From a virus (taxonomy: Duplodnaviria; Caudoviricetes): a DNA stretch of 55,648 nucleotides. A program made the translations under genes and the position numbers. Shown here one piece after another: positions 1-20,743 of the stretch (position 1 is the first letter of the stretch; every line of letters begins with the position of its first letter). The DNA is taken from the IMG/VR virus record IMGVR_UViG_3300017756_003602, positions 1-55,648 of that record; one strand, given 5' to 3'. Under the pieces are notes generated by a model. That model saw nothing but the letters and a program-made list of their open reading frames with translations. It searched no databases and was not told the origin of the DNA.

Positions 1-1209
1 TTAGTTTATGATGGTGCGTGTCATTTGCGTGTCTTTTTGGTTCGTTTTCTCATATTCCTCGATAAATCTACCGTAATGCCTAAATAGCATTTCAGGTGAT
101 GCGTGGCCCATCCAATTTGCTAATTGCCACAGGTTTACACCTTGGCTTATATACCTGGTAGCAAACGTGTGTCTCATTTGGTAAGGGTAACGATAGCGAA
201 CGCCAGCAGATTTTAAGATCCGTGACCATTTGTGCTTTCTGAATGAGTCGGGATTGATCCGATTCATTTCCCCATTAGGGAGTTGAACCGGCATCCCAAT
301 TTTTTGAGGGAATACAAAATCGCCAGCAACAAAAGATAAAGCCTTTTGATCATTCAATGCTTGCATGGCTTCATCATTTAATGGGATCGCCCGTTTACCT
401 GCATTAGTCTTGGTTCCTTTCATTTGGTGGTGAACGATTGCCACTTTCACAACTACCATTTTATTAATGAAGTCTATATCTTCCCAGCGCAGTGCAGACC
501 ATTCGCTAGGTCGCATGCCTGTATTGAACACAAACCTAATTACGTTAACTTCCCAACCTTTCGCCTTTTTGATAATGGCGTTAACTTCCTCAGGAGTGAA
601 TGGGTCGATATCGTTATGATCACCATCAAGGTTCACTTTGTTATCTTTTTCAACATAGTTTGAAAGCTTGATAGTATCGATAGGGTTTATGTCTACTAGG
701 CCATCCGTCAGAGCTTCAGCTAGTGCGCTTCTTAAATAGCTAAACTTGTTGCGCAATGTCTTTGGCGAATTACCCGACTTTCTAACAAAGTCTTTGAGTA
801 AAGCGGGGGTGAGTTCGCTTACTGGTATATCGTGAAGAGTAGACAATGATTTTTTCAGTTTGCGATAACCTTCAAGGGTAGACGGTGAAAGGCCGCGTAA
901 TTTGGCCGCGTCCTGATATTCATCTAAGTAATCAAGTACGGTTTTCGTTCTGTCTACCTTCCTGCCGAAAATACGAAGCTTGGCAGAATTAGGAAAGTAG
1001 TCAGCATACTGAAAAGTTTTTCGCTCAATGGCGTTTTGAATTTCGCCTAGTAGGTTATCTGCGTATTTAATATTTCTTGTTGTGGGTTCAATCCGCAACA
1101 CCTCACGGCAGCGAACACCTTTATAGGTGAACGCTACCTGTAATGATTCGCTGGCACGGTTCTGCTTTATGCTTACGCCGCGCGGCAGCTTCCTCCGTTT
1201 CTCGCCCAT
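1..1209 (-). CDS. int: Tyrosine integrase with N-terminal Arm-DNA-binding domain
   Basis: TGMRPSE catalytic Arg box, YQMRHTFAT (H-x-x-R variant), MGH and HYG motifs; N-terminal FTYKGVRCRE...IERKTFQYADYFPNS Arm-binding signature. Confidence 0.95.
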   Translation of the reverse strand: MGEKRRKLPRGVSIKQNRASESLQVAFTYKGVRCREVLRIEPTTRNIKYADNLLGEIQNAIERKTFQYADYFPNSAKLRIFGRKVDRTKTVLDYLDEYQDAAKLRGLSPSTLEGYRKLKKSLSTLHDIPVSELTPALLKDFVRKSGNSPKTLRNKFSYLRSALAEALTDGLVDINPIDTIKLSNYVEKDNKVNLDGDHNDIDPFTPEEVNAIIKKAKGWEVNVIRFVFNTGMRPSEWSALRWEDIDFINKMVVVKVAIVHHQMKGTKTNAGKRAIPLNDEAMQALNDQKALSFVAGDFVFPQKIGMPVQLPNGEMNRINPDSFRKHKWSRILKSAGVRYRYPYQMRHTFATRYISQGVNLWQLANWMGHASPEMLFRHYGRFIEEYEKTNQKDTQMTRTIIN

Positions 1210-11771: not shown

Positions 11772-12482
11772 TTAATCCCAGATGCTCGTGTGCCAAAAAA
11801 CCTTTCCGATCACCTTGATTTGCTCTAGTTCTCGACCAAAGTACTTTTCGTCTGGATGCTCGTCACTATTAATGCTATTAATCCGCAAGCCATTACCAGG
11901 TATTCGGTAAAGCCTCTTAACTCTAAGTAAACCATCATGATTTATTGCATAAACTTTTCCATCAACAACTTTTGTATCAAATGTGTTTACGCCAACAACA
12001 TCACCGTCAAACAGTCGCGGCTCCATGCTGTTGCCGGAAACCTTAACGCATGCTGCTGCTTCCGTTTCAACTCCACAGCGTCGAAGTGTTGATTTGGAAA
12101 ATCTAAGTTTAGGCCCTCGCCTTTCTATATTGTATTCGCCACCAATCCCTGCTGCTAATTCTACTTCCATGAAAAAAGGCACCTCTACTTCATCTTCGTC
12201 AAGCGGTGTCGCGCTGTCCCAAGCGTCGATATGCCCATAATATTCCGCATTCTCGTTCACTTGATTCTTTTTACTTTGGTGATGCACACGCGGTAGCAGT
12301 TCGCTATGCACTCCAAGTATGTTAACTATCTCAAAAATATTGTCGCTACTAGGCTTATACTCGTCTTTCTCCCATGCCCTTACAGTCACATGAGATACGC
12401 CAAGCTTTTTGCCAAATTCGCCAGCTGATCTAAAGCCAGCTGCTTTTCGCGCCCGTTCTAAGCAACTTCCAAATGTATCCAT
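11772..12482 (-). CDS. cI: CI-like repressor (HTH_3 plus S24 peptidase)
   Basis: N-terminal HTH, AG cleavage site (LAAGIG), GNSMEP and VKRL catalytic Ser/Lys. Confidence 0.95.
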   Translation of the reverse strand: MDTFGSCLERARKAAGFRSAGEFGKKLGVSHVTVRAWEKDEYKPSSDNIFEIVNILGVHSELLPRVHHQSKKNQVNENAEYYGHIDAWDSATPLDEDEVEVPFFMEVELAAGIGGEYNIERRGPKLRFSKSTLRRCGVETEAAACVKVSGNSMEPRLFDGDVVGVNTFDTKVVDGKVYAINHDGLLRVKRLYRIPGNGLRINSINSDEHPDEKYFGRELEQIKVIGKVFWHTSIWD

Positions 12483-12500
12483 AAACCACCAATTTAATTT

Positions 12501-12560
12501 TAAGTTATCTTAAAACAGCTTGACGTAAGATATGTTAAGGTTTAAATTTAAGAAATCTTA
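12501..12560 (+). promoter_or_regulatory. OR operators (TAAGTTATCTTA 12501-12512, TAAGATATGTTA 12526-12537, TAAGAAATCTTA 12549-12560) and pR (TTGACG-17-TAAATT)
   Basis: Three TAAG-N4-(C/G)TTA palindromes at 23-25 bp spacing; -35 at 12520-12525, -10 at 12543-12548. Confidence 0.85.
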
Positions 12561-12580
12561 CATATTTTAAGGTTCTTAAC

Positions 12581-12766
12581 GTGAAAAAGAGTGATGCGAT
12601 TGAGCACTTCGGTAGCGCTTCAAAACTCGCTAGCGCAATCAATATAGCGCCCGCAGCAGTATCCCAATGGGGCGAGACTATACCGCTCCTTCGCGCTTAC
12701 CAGCTTGAAAAAATTACGGGCGGCAAGCTCAAAGTTGAAGAAGTCGAACTTAGTAAAGCCAGTTAA
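12581..12766 (+). CDS. cro: Cro-like repressor
   Basis: AIEHFGSASKLASAINIAPAAVSQWGETIPLLRAYQLEKITGGKLK; divergent from cI. Confidence 0.9.
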   Translation: MKKSDAIEHFGSASKLASAINIAPAAVSQWGETIPLLRAYQLEKITGGKLKVEEVELSKAS

Positions 12767-12782
12767 TACGGAGATAAAGGCT

Positions 12783-12971
12783 ATGTACGCAGACCCAAGA
12801 AAAATCAAAAAGAACGAAGTCAAAGTCCGTTTAGATGACGACGTTAATGACTTGCTTGAAGCGCTGGTAAAAAACACTGGCGGACAAAAAGCGGTAATTG
12901 TTCGTGACATTTTCATGCGTGGCCTAAAAGAGTCTGTTTCGTTTGGAAGCAAAGAGCGTACAGCAGCTTAA
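12783..12971 (+). CDS. Ribbon-helix-helix-like regulator in the cII position (start revised to ATG at 12783)
   Basis: GGAG SD; MYADPRKIK...VKVRLDD beta-strand followed by two helices. Confidence 0.65.
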   Translation: MYADPRKIKKNEVKVRLDDDVNDLLEALVKNTGGQKAVIVRDIFMRGLKESVSFGSKERTAA

Positions 12972-13027
12972 AACATTAACGAAGAACCCAAGGAGGGTTC
13001 ATCTAAGACTTTTTAAGGCCCTCAATA

Positions 13028-13225
13028 ATGACTGAAGAAAAAATAGAGCTCAGTAACGAAGAATTAGAACTACTACAAAAACATGCAGACGAGCTTGGCG
13101 TGAGTCTTGAGGAAGCAGCTCAACGAGCAATGCTTGAAGGTCTTGGATCTGTATTAACCGACATTTGCCCATCATCAATGGCTATGAAGAAGATTTTGAG
13201 GGACTCAAAAGCCCCTAATAAGTAG
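13028..13225 (+). CDS. Small CopG/RHH-like protein
   Basis: IELSNEELELLQKHADELGVSLEEAAQRA pattern. Confidence 0.55.
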   Translation: MTEEKIELSNEELELLQKHADELGVSLEEAAQRAMLEGLGSVLTDICPSSMAMKKILRDSKAPNK

Positions 13226-13237
13226 AGGAAAATTAAG

Positions 13238-13845
13238 CATGAGCAAAGTAGTTCAAGCTTGCCGATTTTTTAAAAGCGCAATGTCTTGCAATCGTTTGGC
13301 TTTCAATTCTATTCGCCTCTTCGCTTGCTTGGCTTCGAAATGCGAGTCCATCAAAAAGTATGCAATAGGAACTACGGGCAATAAAAGTGACATGAAATTC
13401 AATATCTCACTATCAACTTTCTTGACTTGTAAAAGCGCTGCAAATATTGCGACAGGCATACCAAGAAGGATGGGCCATTTTTTTAAAGCAGCTGCCGCAA
13501 AGTATTCATCATTACGCACTAGCCGAAAGTGTATGCGCCTAGCTGGCCCGTTAAATCTGCTCATCATGCTGATGATAATTGCTTTCGCTTCTGATAGTTC
13601 AATTTTCATGTTCGCGCTGGCTTCCTATTTAGTGCTGACAATCGCTGATTTAATTTTTGTATTTAACGCAACACGAGAGGGGTGCTAATGAAGCAGTTTA
13701 CTTTAAAAGCGGGTGAGATAGTGAAGATTAATGGCATTCCAATCGCCTTGGTTGAGGACGCCATTTTCGAAACTCACGAAAGCAACATGAGCGTTATTTT
13801 TCCAACTCAAAACAAACAGGATAAAGGTCATGAGCAAAGTAGTTC
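13238..13845 (+). repeat. 17-bp direct repeat CATGAGCAAAGTAGTTC (13238-13254 and 13829-13845)
   Basis: Exact match; both copies encode an MSKVV start. Confidence 0.85.
13253..13609 (-). CDS. Two-TM membrane protein oriented against the pR operon
   Basis: AGGAAG SD; two hydrophobic helices and basic C-terminus. Confidence 0.55.
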   Translation of the reverse strand: MKIELSEAKAIIISMMSRFNGPARRIHFRLVRNDEYFAAAALKKWPILLGMPVAIFAALLQVKKVDSEILNFMSLLLPVVPIAYFLMDSHFEAKQAKRRIELKAKRLQDIALLKNRQA

Positions 13846-13858
13846 CAATAAACCCTAA
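13688..13858 (+). CDS. 56-aa hypothetical protein MKQFTLKAGEIVKINGIPIALVED...
   Basis: Hand-translated; GAGG SD. Confidence 0.6.
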   Translation: MKQFTLKAGEIVKINGIPIALVEDAIFETHESNMSVIFPTQNKQDKGHEQSSSNKP

Positions 13859-13907
13859 ACGCACACAACCAAAGCCAGCTTTTACACCAACGCGGAGAGC
13901 AGCGTAA
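13830..13907 (+). CDS. 25-aa peptide MSKVVPINPKRTQPKPAFTPTRRAA
   Basis: Hand-translated; AGGA/AAGG SD; ends in RAA with TAATG coupling, like other genes of this phage. Confidence 0.4.
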   Translation: MSKVVPINPKRTQPKPAFTPTRRAA

Positions 13908-14080
13908 TGCGTTCTGAATTTGTGTGGTTTTGTAAGCGTCATTTTCGCAGCTTTGCGCATCAGTTTAAAACCGACTGGCAGTTTCGAGCGGCAACTATTG
14001 TATTAGCGGTTGAGTTAGCAGCTTTGGCCTATTACGCATCTGTCAGTTTTTGGCTGGATGCGTTTATTAGATCAATTTAG
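13907..14080 (+). CDS. 57-aa protein with C-terminal TM helix (MRSEFVWFCKRHF...)
   Basis: Hand-translated; GGAG SD; TAATG coupling. Confidence 0.55.
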   Translation: MRSEFVWFCKRHFRSFAHQFKTDWQFRAATIVLAVELAALAYYASVSFWLDAFIRSI

Positions 14081-14084
14081 CAGT

Positions 14085-14705
14085 AAGCGTTTGATGTTGC
14101 GCTTTAAACGTCCTGAATGTACCGCCTGAGCAATCTTCTTCCGTGTTGCGAGGACATTCAGATAAACGAAGCAGAAGTCATAAGAGTGTTGGGCTACTCG
14201 GACATGGTTAGCGACCTTAGCTAGCGGCGAAAGACAAAGGTGACACTTGGAGAGACAAGGCGTTTTGAGAATGACTGCTAGGGATGTAACGCAAGAAGCG
14301 CCCTAACGGGTAATGAGCTTGGTCAGTGTGGTATCGGTCAGTCATTCATCAAAGCGTTATTGCTGCTGGCTGTGGGCGAATGAGGGTGCCCACTATAAAC
14401 CCCACGGAATTAACCGACAAAGCCATGGGCCAGAGAACGTTCGGATAAGACGAGGCACCGGCAACGCTTTCTAGTATCGGTAACGGTAAGCAATAGGGCT
14501 TATTCATCCGAGTTGGTGCCAAGGTGACGACCATGGCCGCGCCTACTGCGAAAGTGTAGGGCGTTTTGAGAAGGCTTATTAGGTTATCAACGGTACGGCT
14601 TCACATTCACTGAGTGTGATGGGTAATCAATAAGCTTTCTCAAAGCGTTATGCGGATTGCACATTTGCGGTCGGCGCTTTCGACTGGCCCACGTTAAGGG
14701 CTAAA
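14085..14705 (+). ncRNA. Candidate structured ncRNA cluster, family unknown
   Basis: ~620 nt with no credible ORF; nearly continuous helices, two related 18-20 bp stems, GNRA tetraloops and G-U pairs that favour the + strand. Confidence 0.6.
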
Positions 14706-14706
14706 A

Positions 14707-14796
14707 CGAAAAAACCCCGCATGCCGTGGAAAGCAAATGCGGGGTTTAGATGATAAACATCGAGGTAATTATGATGCAAATCGAAAATATTAACAA
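14707..14796 (-). ncRNA. oop-like antisense RNA unit: promoter TTGTTA-17-CATAAT, ~55-nt RNA, intrinsic terminator
   Basis: -35 at 14791-14796, -10 at 14768-14773 overlapping the ATG at 14771 as in lambda pO; AAACCCCGCAT/ATGCGGGGTTT hairpin 14712-14747 with U-tract on the minus strand. Confidence 0.65.
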
Positions 14797-15490
14797 CTCT
14801 AAATACACAGATTACGCGTTACTGCCATTCAAAAATGTAACTGTTTTTGATAACGCAGAGGAAATGATTCTTGATCACAATGAAAAGGTTTTAGGTGGCT
14901 GGGTTTACGCTCTTTCGAATGAAAGTTTTCCTGACCTCCTAAAAATAGGTATGACAACTATCAGTCCAGTAGAGAGGGCAAGACAATTAGGCTCTTCTGG
15001 AGTTCCAACCCCCTTTAAAGTTGAGTGGTCAGTGCAGGTAAAAGATGCACCCAAAGTGGAGAAACAGATACACGAACACTTCAGCAAGGGGCGAGTAAAT
15101 TCATCTAGAGAATTTTTCAAAATAACGCTAGACGAACTCACTGAATACGTGAGCGAGGAAGTTGATTTCTACCTGTCATCAGGAATGGATGTGTTCTTTC
15201 AGTACCACACTATTCATTTGGATGAAGCGAAAAAAGAAAAGCGAGAGAATTTAAAAATATCCAGCGATCTTTTGGAAAGAATCAATTGCGAAGCTTTTGT
15301 GAAAAATAACACAGCCTTCATAGAAAGCTGCGTAGAGCTTGTCCTTTCCAAGTTCAGGGGAACGTTAATATTCAAAGATGGTGAGGTGAAAGTATCTCCA
15401 GAGCCCGAGTACAGTGGCCACTCAGAGTTTTTAAAGCCCCATCAAAAGCCAGTCCAGATAAGAGTTAAGAACGGTGGTTTTTCACTATGA
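14771..15490 (+). CDS. T5orf172/GIY-YIG superfamily nuclease-like protein (start revised to 14771)
   Basis: GWVYALSN...LLKIGMTT...ERARQL..SGVPTPF...EKQIHEHF...RVNSSREFF; GAGG SD. Confidence 0.85.
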   Translation: MMQIENINNSKYTDYALLPFKNVTVFDNAEEMILDHNEKVLGGWVYALSNESFPDLLKIGMTTISPVERARQLGSSGVPTPFKVEWSVQVKDAPKVEKQIHEHFSKGRVNSSREFFKITLDELTEYVSEEVDFYLSSGMDVFFQYHTIHLDEAKKEKRENLKISSDLLERINCEAFVKNNTAFIESCVELVLSKFRGTLIFKDGEVKVSPEPEYSGHSEFLKPHQKPVQIRVKNGGFSL

Positions 15491-16242
15491 GCGTTAAATT
15501 AATGTGGTCTGCAATGACCGTAAAAGCTGGTAGCCCTACTGCTAAGCTAATCCTTCTAAAGTTGGCAGACAACGCGAACGACAAAGGCGAGTGCTGGCCT
15601 AGTTTAAAAAACATCGCTGAGCATTGTGAAGTATCACAGAAAACGGTTATCACCAATATCAAGAAGCTTGAAGATCTTGGGTATGTCAAAAAAATCAACC
15701 GATTTAATGACAAGGGTAAAACCTCAAATCTATATGTAATTACCATTACTGAAGGTGCACCAGTTGAGGGCAATTCTTCTTCAGAACCATGTGAAAAAAC
15801 TTCAACTACCCATGTGAAAAAACGTAAAGAACCTAGTGAAAAAACTTCAACTACCCCATGTGAAAAATCTTCAACTACCCCATGTGAAAAATCTTCACAT
15901 GAATCTGTCAGTATAGAACCTGTCATTACTGAATCTGTCATTGAAACTATAGAGCGCGAGAAGATGGTTTCTCTTGAAAGCCTGAATGCTTTCGTTAGCT
16001 ACAGAAAAAAAATCAAAAAGCCAATGACTACTCACGCAGTTGAGTTGCTAGTTGCAAAACTAAGCGGTCTTCGTGTTGACGGTCATTCTCCACAAGAGCT
16101 AATCAACGAAGCCATCATGAATGGCTGGCAATCGGTTCACCCTAAAAACAATGCGCAACCTAACCGCACCTTTCAAAGCCATCAAGAACGCATACGCGAA
16201 GAAAACATGCGCGTTATGTCTAACTGGGCAAACAAGGAGTAG
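15487..16242 (+). CDS. Replication initiator (O-like, HTH_36)
   Basis: KLILLKLADNANDKGECWPSLKNIAEHCEVS...LEDLGYV N-terminus; internal iterons; AIMNGWQSV C-terminus. Confidence 0.88.
   Translation: MSVKLMWSAMTVKAGSPTAKLILLKLADNANDKGECWPSLKNIAEHCEVSQKTVITNIKKLEDLGYVKKINRFNDKGKTSNLYVITITEGAPVEGNSSSEPCEKTSTTHVKKRKEPSEKTSTTPCEKSSTTPCEKSSHESVSIEPVITESVIETIEREKMVSLESLNAFVSYRKKIKKPMTTHAVELLVAKLSGLRVDGHSPQELINEAIMNGWQSVHPKNNAQPNRTFQSHQERIREENMRVMSNWANKE
15787..15941 (+). repeat. Replication origin iterons: five CC(A/T)(T/A)GTGAAAAA copies (15787, 15810, 15832, 15856, 15880) plus three GAA(T/C)CTGTCA copies at 15-bp period
   Basis: Repeats at 22-24 bp spacing inside the initiator gene, as for lambdoid ori. 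Confidence 0.85.
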
Positions 16243-18888: not shown

Positions 18889-19460
18889 TCGTGAAAAACC
18901 GCCGTTGCTCACACTGCAAAAAGAAAGGCCTACAAAGCGACATGCTATTACGACAGCTAAAGGCATTCTGTGACCAAAACTGTTTTGCAGAGTGGGCGGC
19001 AGCTAACGTTTCTAAACTGGCTAAAAAGGGTAAACAAATTGAATCGAAGCGACTCAAGGCAAAGAAAGAAAAACTCAAAACAAAAGGCGAACACCTACGC
19101 GAAGCACAAACGGCATTTAACAGTTTTATCCGCGAAAGGGATGCGCAAGAGCCGTGTATCAGTTGCGGTAGGTATCACACTGGCAAGTACGATGCAGGGC
19201 ACTACCGAAGTGTAGGAAGTGCACCCGAACTGAGATTTGATGAAGATAACTGCCACCGTCAGTGCGTTCCCTGCAATCAGCACCTTTCAGGAAACCTAAT
19301 TAGTTACCGAATAAACCTGGTCAAGAGAATAGGGCAGGAACGAGTAGATAAGCTAGAAGGTCCACACGAGCCTAAAAACTACACCATAGAACAAATACAA
19401 GACATTAAGGCGCATTATCGCAAGCGTGTACGCGAAATGCAGAAACAAAAAGCGGCATGA
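18879..19460 (+). CDS. ninG: NinG/Rap family endonuclease
   Basis: AQTAFNSFIRERD..PCISCG, DAGHYRSVG, LRFDEDNCHRQCVPCNQHLSGN. Confidence 0.93.
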   Translation: MAVIVKNRRCSHCKKKGLQSDMLLRQLKAFCDQNCFAEWAAANVSKLAKKGKQIESKRLKAKKEKLKTKGEHLREAQTAFNSFIRERDAQEPCISCGRYHTGKYDAGHYRSVGSAPELRFDEDNCHRQCVPCNQHLSGNLISYRINLVKRIGQERVDKLEGPHEPKNYTIEQIQDIKAHYRKRVREMQKQKAA

Positions 19461-20005
19461 GCCGTGCGCTAAAGGTAAATACAACAATGGCACACCCAAT
19501 CAGAGAATTAAGCAGAATGACTACTCGCTCAAAAAATCCCGATGGTATGACATTTGGTGGTGTTGCACCCGATGTAAATGAAGTAGCTGGCGCACTGGCA
19601 ATGCGACACCCTGAAACACAACTAAAGCTAGATACACATGCTTACTACTTGGCTAGATTGCTCTACGCCGATGACAGTAGCGCAAGAGTGCGCGTTAAAG
19701 CTGGCTTATTGAACGTTATGCTAAAAGCTGAGCTAGAGGTAAGTAACACTTGCTTGGTGCGCATGATTAACTGCGCCATCATCGAAATACAATCACCTAT
19801 CATGCGCTTAAACCGCAAGACCGGCGAACAAGAAATTAAGCCAACAAGCAAAGTTCAGCTTTGTAAGCGGTTAGGTATCAAGGGGAACAAGCTTCCCGTT
19901 AAAATATCTGAAGCTTACAGCCAAGTGCTAGAGCAGCTTTATCTATGGAATAGCGAGGCGATAGGCCACGTTAGAGCAACCATGAGAGAGGATGAAGCGG
20001 CATGA
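19457..20005 (+). CDS. Probable late antiterminator (Q position)
   Basis: Follows ninG, size and C-terminal HTH-like segment fit; a pR'-type module lies downstream; no strong motif match. Confidence 0.5.
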   Translation: MSRALKVNTTMAHPIRELSRMTTRSKNPDGMTFGGVAPDVNEVAGALAMRHPETQLKLDTHAYYLARLLYADDSSARVRVKAGLLNVMLKAELEVSNTCLVRMINCAIIEIQSPIMRLNRKTGEQEIKPTSKVQLCKRLGIKGNKLPVKISEAYSQVLEQLYLWNSEAIGHVRATMREDEAA

Positions 20006-20655: not shown

Positions 20656-20743
20656 TTGACTCACTGACGAGCTTTGCTTAATATATCCCCATACTAGCAC
20701 TATTTCACTTGAAGCCCTGACCTAACCAGTCGGGGCTTTTTTT
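20656..20743 (+). promoter_or_regulatory. Late promoter pR'-like (TTGACT-17-TAATAT), -10-like pause element CATACT (20690-20695) and terminator (20712-20743)
   Basis: Hexamers and 10-bp hairpin with T-run read directly; lies immediately before the lysis genes. Confidence 0.8.

Follow-up and report, generated by a model that had tools for sequence, protein, structure and literature searches.

Introduction

Lambdoid phages keep a nutR or putR site after cro and before the replication genes. In phage lambda, a short leftward transcript, oop, lies between the cII region and O; it is transcribed from a promoter where the O-side gene begins and has a strong terminator of its own. The early transcript of phage T7 is punctuated by hairpins with a common lower stem, RNase III cleaves long near-perfect duplexes, and DicF is excised from the early operon of a lambdoid prophage (Qin). 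Few structured phage RNAs reach several hundred nucleotides, and hardly any of these has been assigned a function. Here, we describe such an element at positions 14079-14747 of a 55,648-nt stretch of viral DNA (IMG/VR record IMGVR_UViG_3300017756_003602; the whole stretch is referred to as the window). The element is located at a well-understood lambdoid control point, and it has a relative in a cultured phage, Alteromonas phage P24.

In the report on phage HK022 (PMC9378689), the put RNA is described as ~70 nt long, with two stem-loops, present as putL and putR, and requiring no phage protein. The element in the window resembles put as described there in that it would be nascent early-operon RNA of a lambdoid phage with two adjacent stem-loops located after cro and before the first terminator. 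It differs in its length (354–1458 nt among relatives), its single occurrence per genome, its long hairpins with variable tips and its extra domains, and it shows no evident sequence likeness to put. The small GNRA hairpin directly before each conserved stem may recall the two stem-loops of put, but the sizes differ greatly and the two were compared by description only. The second comparison is canT of Tn916, which its report (PMC11658703) describes as a 452-nt RNA acting in cis and processively, as shown by reporters, and once annotated as orf5. Like canT in that account, the element is a structured RNA of several hundred nucleotides in a mobile element, situated after the main promoter and before terminators, and part of it is annotated as an open reading frame (ORF) in phage P24. 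canT itself belongs to a Gram-positive conjugative element and its function in cis was shown by reporters, whereas the likeness here is one of description only. GOLLD and ROOL are also phage-borne, hundreds of nucleotides long, rich in GNRA loops, variable in their insertions and of unknown function; they occur in other hosts and beside tRNA arrays, while the present element lies in an early operon and matches no Rfam model. In the main texts that we consulted in part on Alteromonas phages, prophage non-coding RNA and HK022-type antitermination, supplements not covered, we found no description of the element.

Fold and coding capacity of the block

The block is very probably a genuine plus-strand, multi-domain non-coding RNA region, an untranslated part of the early rightward operon that is built from exchangeable modules. 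A preliminary description, made from the letters of the window alone, had proposed a structured region of ~620 nt without a credible ORF, and our results bear this out. The ORFs in the block are short (the longest has 53 aa on the plus strand and 61 aa on the minus strand), the five that were tested gave no PHROG match, and no conserved ORF was found across 14079-14747. On the plus strand, 14085-14745 (661 bases) folds to −251.2 kcal/mol compared with −210.95±6.89 kcal/mol for shuffled sequences (z −5.84), and none of the 20 shuffles was as good. The minus strand gave −191.3 kcal/mol compared with −180.44 kcal/mol (z −1.69), and 2 of the 20 shuffles were as good. The plus-strand orientation proposed earlier is thus supported by a fold excess on that strand only and by G-T wobbles that would be A-C mismatches on the minus strand.

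No match at the gathering score was obtained with Rfam 15 in the whole window (GOLLD, ROOL, HEARO, riboswitches, ribozymes and Y-like RNAs included), and ARAGORN found no tRNA or tmRNA gene there, which agrees with the earlier remark that no tRNA, riboswitch or ribozyme consensus was recognized in the block. At E values up to 10, three minus-strand hits below threshold, all on the terminator, were the only ones in the region 13900-14900 (best E 0.21). In the loci of seven relatives (57,207 bases), the only match was a tRNA located outside the element. The RNA family is new, as it has no Rfam match; its broad kind, that of phage early-operon regulatory or large structured RNAs, is known, and its cassette-like build is unusual.

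The fold excess is distributed unevenly over the block, and two long hairpins contribute most. By segment, the z values are as follows:

14109-14166, leader hairpin: −2.10
14167-14258: −0.46
14259-14359, hairpin A: −4.75
14360-14421: −0.13
14422-14558: −1.61
14560-14650, hairpin B: −8.77
14651-14708, tail: −2.53

The claim that the block is almost continuously base-paired was overstated in terms of energy alone, with three segments at the level of shuffles; the leader helices are nonetheless backed by covariation. The parts of the element and the site that follows it are:

14079-14258, plus strand: leader domain, from a MAFFT alignment and RNAalifold
14086-14090/14099-14103, plus strand: leader helix P0
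14109-14112/14226-14229, plus strand: leader closing helix
14113-14161, plus strand: leader helix P1
14178-14180/14205-14207 (outer) and 14184-14187/14196-14199 (inner), plus strand: leader helix P2
14209-14212/14220-14223, plus strand: leader helix P3
14246-14259, plus strand: small GNRA-type hairpin, loop GAGAGA
14259-14359, plus strand: long hairpin A, with conserved lower stem, bulged A at 14346 and branched upper part of type T1
14360-14421, plus strand: linker with hairpin 14372-14393, seen in minimum-energy folds, 95–100% identical in relatives
14422-14559, plus strand: M2 domain, predicted closing helix 14422-14428/14531-14537
near 14475-14486, plus strand: M2 hairpin with GTAA tetraloop
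14543-14559, plus strand: small GAAA hairpin of M2, directly before hairpin B
14560-14650, plus strand: long hairpin B, with the same lower stem without bulge, ~21 bp of unbroken duplex and upper part of type T2
14651-14708, plus strand: tail, with hairpins 14655-14672 and 14685-14703
14709-14747, both strands: terminator-like hairpin, arms 14712-14722 and 14737-14747, an 11-nt perfect inverted repeat
14768-14796, minus strand: promoter-like site for a predicted short leftward RNA, TTGTTA-17-CATAAT

All elements named in the preliminary description exist. Its hairpin CTGAATGT/ACATTCAG is present at 14113-14161, as are its stems A and B and its GTGGGC/GCCCAC hairpin at 14372-14393, and GNRA loops are seen at 14250-14255 and 14550-14553. 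The two small 3′ hairpins that it placed at ~14669-14701 exist at somewhat different positions (14655-14672 and 14685-14703). It did not note that stems A and B represent the same hairpin family twice, with a common base, or that the element extends to the terminator-like hairpin at 14709-14747.

Long hairpins and leader

Hairpins A and B lie 301 nt apart and share their base strands, GGCGTTTTGAGAA on the 5′ side and TCAAAGCGTTAT on the 3′ side. The covariance model R1 finds A with 81.9 bits (E 1.5e-21) and B with 85.4 bits (E 1.5e-22), and a core identical to that of A occurs in 14 loci. With filters off, R1 detected no further copy on either strand of the window. The lower stem of the family, GGCGTTTTGAG/TCAAAGCGTTA, has 10 bp, is nearly invariant and usually carries a bulged A. 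Its pairs are unchanged in 23–29 of the 29 distinct copies; three of them are G-T wobbles, which on the opposite strand would be A-C mismatches, and the rare base changes in this stem are wobble-compatible. The initial 59 hits represent 31 distinct cores, and later loci contributed more copies.

Among 34 aligned copies (29 distinct), 97.4% of the cells are paired, compared with 40–53% when the partners are slid, in an alignment that was fitted to the structure and thus favours pairing. Both partners change in 8 of the 18 pairs (59 cells), and the covariation score was reached by none of 500 shuffles. The upper parts fall into at least 12 types that cannot be aligned with one another and are base-paired all the same, and their tips mostly carry a GTAA or other GNRA loop, as judged by eye. 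The hairpins are 75–160 nt long, and each directly follows a small hairpin with a GAGA- or GAAA-type loop, whichever module is located upstream. Most of the 31 distinct cores fold into a duplex of about two turns, with 20–28 paired positions counted from the base and no more than one bulge; the duplex is more interrupted in a few cores, such as 28 and 31 (the latter a weak 23.6-bit hit). The pentamer GGTAA occurs at 14310, 14478, 14484 and 14622 of the 630-nt block, and it recurs in most tip types of the relatives, usually where a GTAA tetraloop can form.

The leader was analyzed in a MAFFT alignment of 14 variants with 70–99% identity that was not fitted to the structure. RNAalifold gave 34 pairs, 8 of which change on both sides, and supported seven helices; 96.6% of the cells are paired, compared with 34–48% with slid partners, and again none of 500 shuffles reached the covariation score. 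Covariation among homologues, which had been proposed as a check on the structure, is thus seen in both the leader and the long hairpins. Leader variants at 70–80% identity exist, and conserved unpaired stretches lie between the helices. A search with the leader profile (nhmmer) found only 14079-14262 in the window. A pairing of the leader 5′ end with the 3′ strand of hairpin A (78%) is not kept in a second leader type and was rejected.

The M2 domain is 95–100% identical in all 26 BLAST rows (20 cover 14355-14562, four only 14355-14471 and two only 14474-14562), and its pairs are, for that reason, putative. Complementarity between M2 and hairpin B was rejected, being missing where M2 adjoins other hairpin types. 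Another Alteromonas genome, G043, has a dUTPase gene followed by 75 nt related to the 3′ half of M2 (locus L073, 1500-1580, minus strand; 79% identity, E 9e-10). This relative shows compensated changes in one helix by eye, and its fold is no better than shuffles (z −1.21); the two hairpins that come after it have loops like those of tRNA T arms by eye, despite which ARAGORN and Rfam found no tRNA beside it. In the tail, pairing of the hairpin 14655-14672 is kept, by eye, through GCA/TGC to GAG/CTC exchanges in relatives.

Modular architecture in related phages

The host genus of the phage is Alteromonas, and the phage is a marine P24-like lambdoid phage. The closest named relative, Alteromonas phage P24, is 86% identical over the first 387 bases of the block and is the sole match among 50,697 phage records (from which the record of the window itself was possibly excluded). 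The larger collections were scanned with exact patterns only, which miss diverged relatives. The hairpin-end pattern matched 13 stretches in IMG/VR, 30 in metagenome contigs and 8 in genome contigs. R1 was strong in 20 of the metagenome stretches and weak in one (L041, 23.6 bits, left out); the other nine, together with L058, were treated as chance matches. Two of the genome-contig stretches are real, in a prophage of an Alteromonas sp. and in a marine gammaproteobacterial metagenome-assembled genome, and the remaining six (L012-L016 and L018), with poor folds and without flanks, were also treated as chance. A scan with a leader 17-mer added 12 real IMG/VR loci, each with at least one hairpin; some metagenome and IMG/VR records are the same contig. 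The family, in ~45 viral or metagenome contigs, was found only in P24-like lambdoid Alteromonas phages and prophages.

Among 79 Alteromonas species genomes, the hairpin model matched one, inside a prophage; the whole block searched as DNA matched four, with a full real match in that same prophage only. One report (PMC4223743) describes AltRN1, an unexplained 424-nt RNA of Alteromonas macleodii that is as abundant as RNase P RNA in deep-ecotype strains and common to all of them. The hairpin model found nothing in 78 of the 79 genomes.

From leader to terminator, the element spans 354–1458 nt and contains between one and three long hairpins. At its smallest, it consists of leader, one hairpin, tail and terminator (L038, L009), and the form in the window is leader, hairpin T1, M2, hairpin T2 and tail, while other phages have alternative pre-hairpin or 3′ modules. 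Hairpin number tends to increase with element length (one hairpin, 354–1283 nt; two hairpins, 574–1458 nt), with overlapping ranges; the two one-hairpin cases of 1283 nt carry a moron, and the spans of three-hairpin loci are not in this comparison. Hairpins are located at module or gene boundaries, between leader and M2, between M2 and tail, and beside inserted ORFs in L021, L057 and L064, where small ORFs come immediately after a hairpin. Mosaic breakpoints coincide with hairpin edges. In L010 (8847-9176, minus strand), L059, L062, L063, L066 and L071, a gene for a 109-aa protein with a signal-peptide-like N-terminus and a strong terminator of its own is inserted exactly between the last small hairpin of the leader and the next RNA module. 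The idea of a polycistronic cassette fits this modular mosaic.

A link between hairpin type and the Cro allele or the downstream gene was sought and rejected, as the types combine freely with both. Because the same Cro allele or downstream gene occurs with different hairpin types, neither immunity nor the initiator dictates the tips, and the invariant base points to a constant partner.

In the P24 record (GenBank MK241539.2), the hypothetical protein QIV64695.1 (L001, 1033-1371) lies wholly inside the RNA block. Its ORF begins within the hairpin A tip, matches no family and encodes 53 aa in the window compared with 112 aa in L010. It is probably not a gene, and the annotation is likely to need correction accordingly.

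We also considered that the element might act as DNA, as single-stranded recombination or priming sites (attC-like or ssi-like) or as small mobile inverted repeats, which we regard as very unlikely. The mosaic junctions at hairpin edges, one with a gene cassette inserted exactly at it, would suit this explanation, and attC sites likewise have conserved ends, a variable middle and an extrahelical base. However, the strand asymmetry and the wobble pairs match the transcribed strand, and the leader and tail, instead of being simple palindromes, comprise several helices each and show covariation. No other site in the phage has the hairpin, and just one of 79 genomes of the genus does, there in a prophage; it is therefore no spreading repeat. 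The ORFs scanned included no integron integrase, and the origin iterons are located elsewhere. The specific comparison with integron attC was rejected, because the hairpin ends misfit the core consensus in all but one variant and most hairpins flank RNA modules, not genes.

Hairpins as proposed punctuation of a cassette

The reading that we favour, tentatively and by analogy with described systems, is a co-transcribed non-coding RNA cassette in which the hairpins would serve as docking or cleavage points that release stable domain RNAs. A single conserved partner, in the simplest case a host factor, would dock or cut at the invariant lower stem. With 20–28 bp of near-perfect duplex, each hairpin is the kind of substrate cut by host RNase III, which would be the simplest candidate. 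Cuts at these “punctuation” hairpins would yield stable, hairpin-capped domain RNAs (leader, M2 and the alternative modules) and would allow the cro-proximal message and the replication genes to have separate fates; the freed domains might then act as RNAs, probably by binding proteins. Similar lower stems between units of an early polycistronic transcript recall the RNase III hairpins of T7, and the proposed release of RNAs from a lambdoid early operon recalls DicF of prophage Qin. The units here differ from these, as they would be multi-helix domains of 150–300 nt instead of mRNAs or a 53-nt small RNA, and cleavage is a proposal in the present case.

Several observations weigh against the cassette reading. 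RNase III needs no invariant sequence, so RNase III alone leaves the strict conservation of the lower stem unexplained. Shuffled sequences fold as well as M2, the linker and part of the leader; the helix that closes the leader is invariant in the 14 variants and looks broken in L068. L006 and L020 contain the 3′ half of M2 only, so that either the domain is not essential as a unit or these copies are recent recombinants. The RNA data consist of contigs, in which no processed species, 5′ or 3′ ends or half-lives are seen.

Part of the block is found in 22 listed sequencing runs, 14 of them registered as RNA. In three RNA libraries, from three studies, contigs that cover 14089-14559 give a weak hint of transcription, DNA carry-over being possible. 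In X2, the contigs of the block have depths of 15.5 and 28.7, compared with 2–9 for flanking pieces, with one depth figure per contig. Some RNA-library contigs have adapter at their ends, and contig ends coincide with mosaic junctions. Given this coincidence and the possibility of DNA, we drew no conclusion from depth or contig ends as to level, ends or processing. X19 is a 21.6-kb contig and is evidently DNA of a related prophage.

A broader proposal, which we consider rather unlikely, is that the early operon is governed by RNA alone. Modules with the invariant base would dock on a host machine (RNA polymerase, Rho/Nus or RNase), would replace the N/nut and cII functions and might assemble through their GNRA loops into a larger particle. 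If true, large modular phage RNAs that evolve as cassettes would form a new class. Separately, should the element yield stable domain RNAs, it would represent a new kind of polycistronic non-coding RNA cassette. The natural variants provide dozens of ready “swap” experiments, and the invariant 10-bp stem is a handle for pull-downs and mutagenesis.

The early operon and the 3′ end of the element

From gene order and from PHROG and Pfam scans of 40 ORFs, the window is a lambdoid temperate phage of 55.6 kb. Its features around the block are:

1-1209, minus strand: phage-type integrase, the sole integrase found
between the integrase and the CI-type repressor in gene order: RecE/Bet-type recombination genes
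11772-12482, minus strand: CI-type repressor
12520-12548, plus strand: pR-like promoter, TTGACG-17-TAAATT, just 5′ of the Cro gene; a consensus match only
12581-12766, plus strand: P22-Cro-type gene
between the Cro gene and the RNA block: small ribbon-helix-helix-like genes
14079-14747, plus strand: RNA block from leader to terminator-like hairpin, ~670 nt
14750-15490, plus strand: T5orf172/MUG113 domain gene (Pfam PF10544, 8.3e-16)
15487-16242, plus strand: O-like initiator
3′ of the O-like initiator, in this order: loader-like gene, methylase, NinB, NinG, lysis genes, terminase

The location inside the early pR operon, as first proposed, is supported by the pR-like promoter and Cro gene upstream and the O-like initiator downstream. 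No further plus-strand promoter-like site was found after 12520-12548 as far as 16777, and the pR-like promoter is the simplest source of transcription for the block.

This setting brings in the principal alternative to the cassette, a processive antiterminator or anti-Rho element that would act in cis, as HK022 put and Tn916 canT do. By analogy, it is a possible reading, and a doubtful one. The nascent two-hairpin unit, or the leader, would bind the transcribing RNA polymerase through the invariant base, and the terminators before the replication genes would be resisted. The position after cro and before the replication genes is as expected, a terminator-like hairpin follows the element in all 26 distinct contexts, and a base that stays constant while the tips vary would suit docking on a host enzyme that is itself invariant. 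In relatives with an inserted gene, a strong plus-strand terminator (5 T) separates leader from hairpins and precedes the replication genes, so that read-through would be needed there; these same moron-bearing relatives have their hairpins after that terminator, which does not favour an action of the hairpins on it. In the window, the need is weak, as its only plus-strand early-operon terminator has 3 T and looks built for the opposite strand. A 670-nt untranslated RNA would be at risk from Rho, and the block, a GC-rich island (0.49–0.53 compared with 0.37–0.44 in the flanks), has more G than C. Precedents are the two adjacent stem-loops of put (PMC9378689) and canT, a 452-nt RNA acting in cis and once annotated as an ORF (PMC11658703). 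Unlike HK022 with its putL and putR, the window has a single site, with no leftward copy of the hairpin or leader, and the element is 5–20 times longer than put, which leaves its extra domains unexplained.

The 40 scanned ORFs included no recognized N-like or other antiterminator, which would fit an RNA that acts without one, although N-type proteins are hard to detect and their absence is weak evidence. No boxA of a lambda-type nut site was found on the plus strand of 12500-14800; with a 12-nt consensus and up to two mismatches, the window has 6 hits compared with 8.3 expected by chance. Reading GCGCTTTAA at 14099 as a boxA was dropped, as it is partly within helix P0 and the consensus scan gave no early-operon match. 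If the element acts on transcription, RNA-only antitermination of the put and canT kind would extend to marine gammaproteobacterial phages.

The 3′ end of the element has a second conserved feature. In the 26 distinct contexts, the terminator-like hairpin has a run of 5–7 A upstream and of 3–4 T downstream, which makes it a strong leftward and a weak (leaky) rightward terminator. On the minus strand, TTGNNN-17-CATAMT lies over the start codon of the next gene in 24 of the 26 contexts, whichever gene this is. We predict from these signals a leftward antisense RNA of ~60 nt, oop-like in position, that would end at the hairpin 14747-14709 with its 6-T run; the ribosome-binding stretch of the gene downstream would lie antisense to its 5′ part, and the hairpin may mainly serve this conserved RNA. 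As in lambda oop, the predicted RNA is short and leftward, with a promoter at the O-side gene start and a strong terminator of its own. Unlike oop, it would overlap the downstream ribosome-binding stretch and the terminator hairpin instead of the end of the cII gene.

A further reading makes the element a long cis-regulatory leader, in which the structured RNA, the leaky hairpin and the antisense RNA would together set the timing, stability or translation of the first gene of the replication module, like lambda cII-oop and without any free RNA. We judge this improbable. In every locus, the element is on the same strand as, and directly 5′ of, a gene with a conserved ribosome-binding stretch, and the antisense promoter covers the start codon of that gene in nearly all contexts; iterons inside the O-like gene mark the region as the entry to the replication module. 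Such a leader would not need 350–1450 nt or exchangeable domains, and ORFs can be inserted inside the element. An antiterminator pairing between the tail and the terminator arm was sought and rejected, as the arm varies, the tail does not and there is no covariation. The iteron-like repeats themselves comprise 4.8 copies of a 24-bp repeat at 15787-15897 and a 15-bp repeat at 15900-15942. The origin, which is origin-like in having iterons as in lambda ori, would thus sit inside the O-like gene, away from the RNA block.

Immediately after the terminator-like hairpin comes the T5orf172/GIY-YIG-type nuclease gene, and the preliminary description had raised, as a speculative possibility, a partnership between nuclease and RNA. 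We find such a role of the RNA, as partner or guide, hardly credible. The two are adjacent in the window and in L022 (44% identity), which is the only one of 36 related loci with a homologue near the element; the other 35 have none within the available DNA, many of these loci being short. Several complete contexts go from the terminator into other genes, and L007 and L008 go straight into the O-like gene. Along with the DNA-level and cis-leader explanations, this one is less likely than antitermination. A type III toxin-antitoxin system (ToxI-like) was also rejected, as 13900-14750 has no tandem array, the hairpins are 301 nt apart and the downstream gene is not conserved. No reverse transcriptase family, as a retron would have, was found in the PHROG and Pfam scans of the 40 ORFs, which are part of the ORFs of the window.

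Directly 5′ of the leader, a 57-aa ORF (13907-14080) has a basic N-terminus and one hydrophobic helix; relatives of it lie upstream of the element in 23 of the 36 loci, without a family match. Further upstream, a membrane-like ORF of 118 aa (13212-13609, minus strand) runs opposite to the early operon, with a terminator-like site at 13228-13212, and is a possible opposite-strand moron common to L007 and L008. The 149-aa plus-strand ORF that overlaps it looks spurious. Toward the late genes, a candidate Q gene lies at 19457-20005, without a PHROG match. At 20656-20739, just before the lysis genes, a promoter-like TTGACT-17-TAATAT is followed 27 nt on by a strong plus-strand terminator, a layout like lambda pR′-tR′ that suggests, by analogy, Q-type late antitermination.

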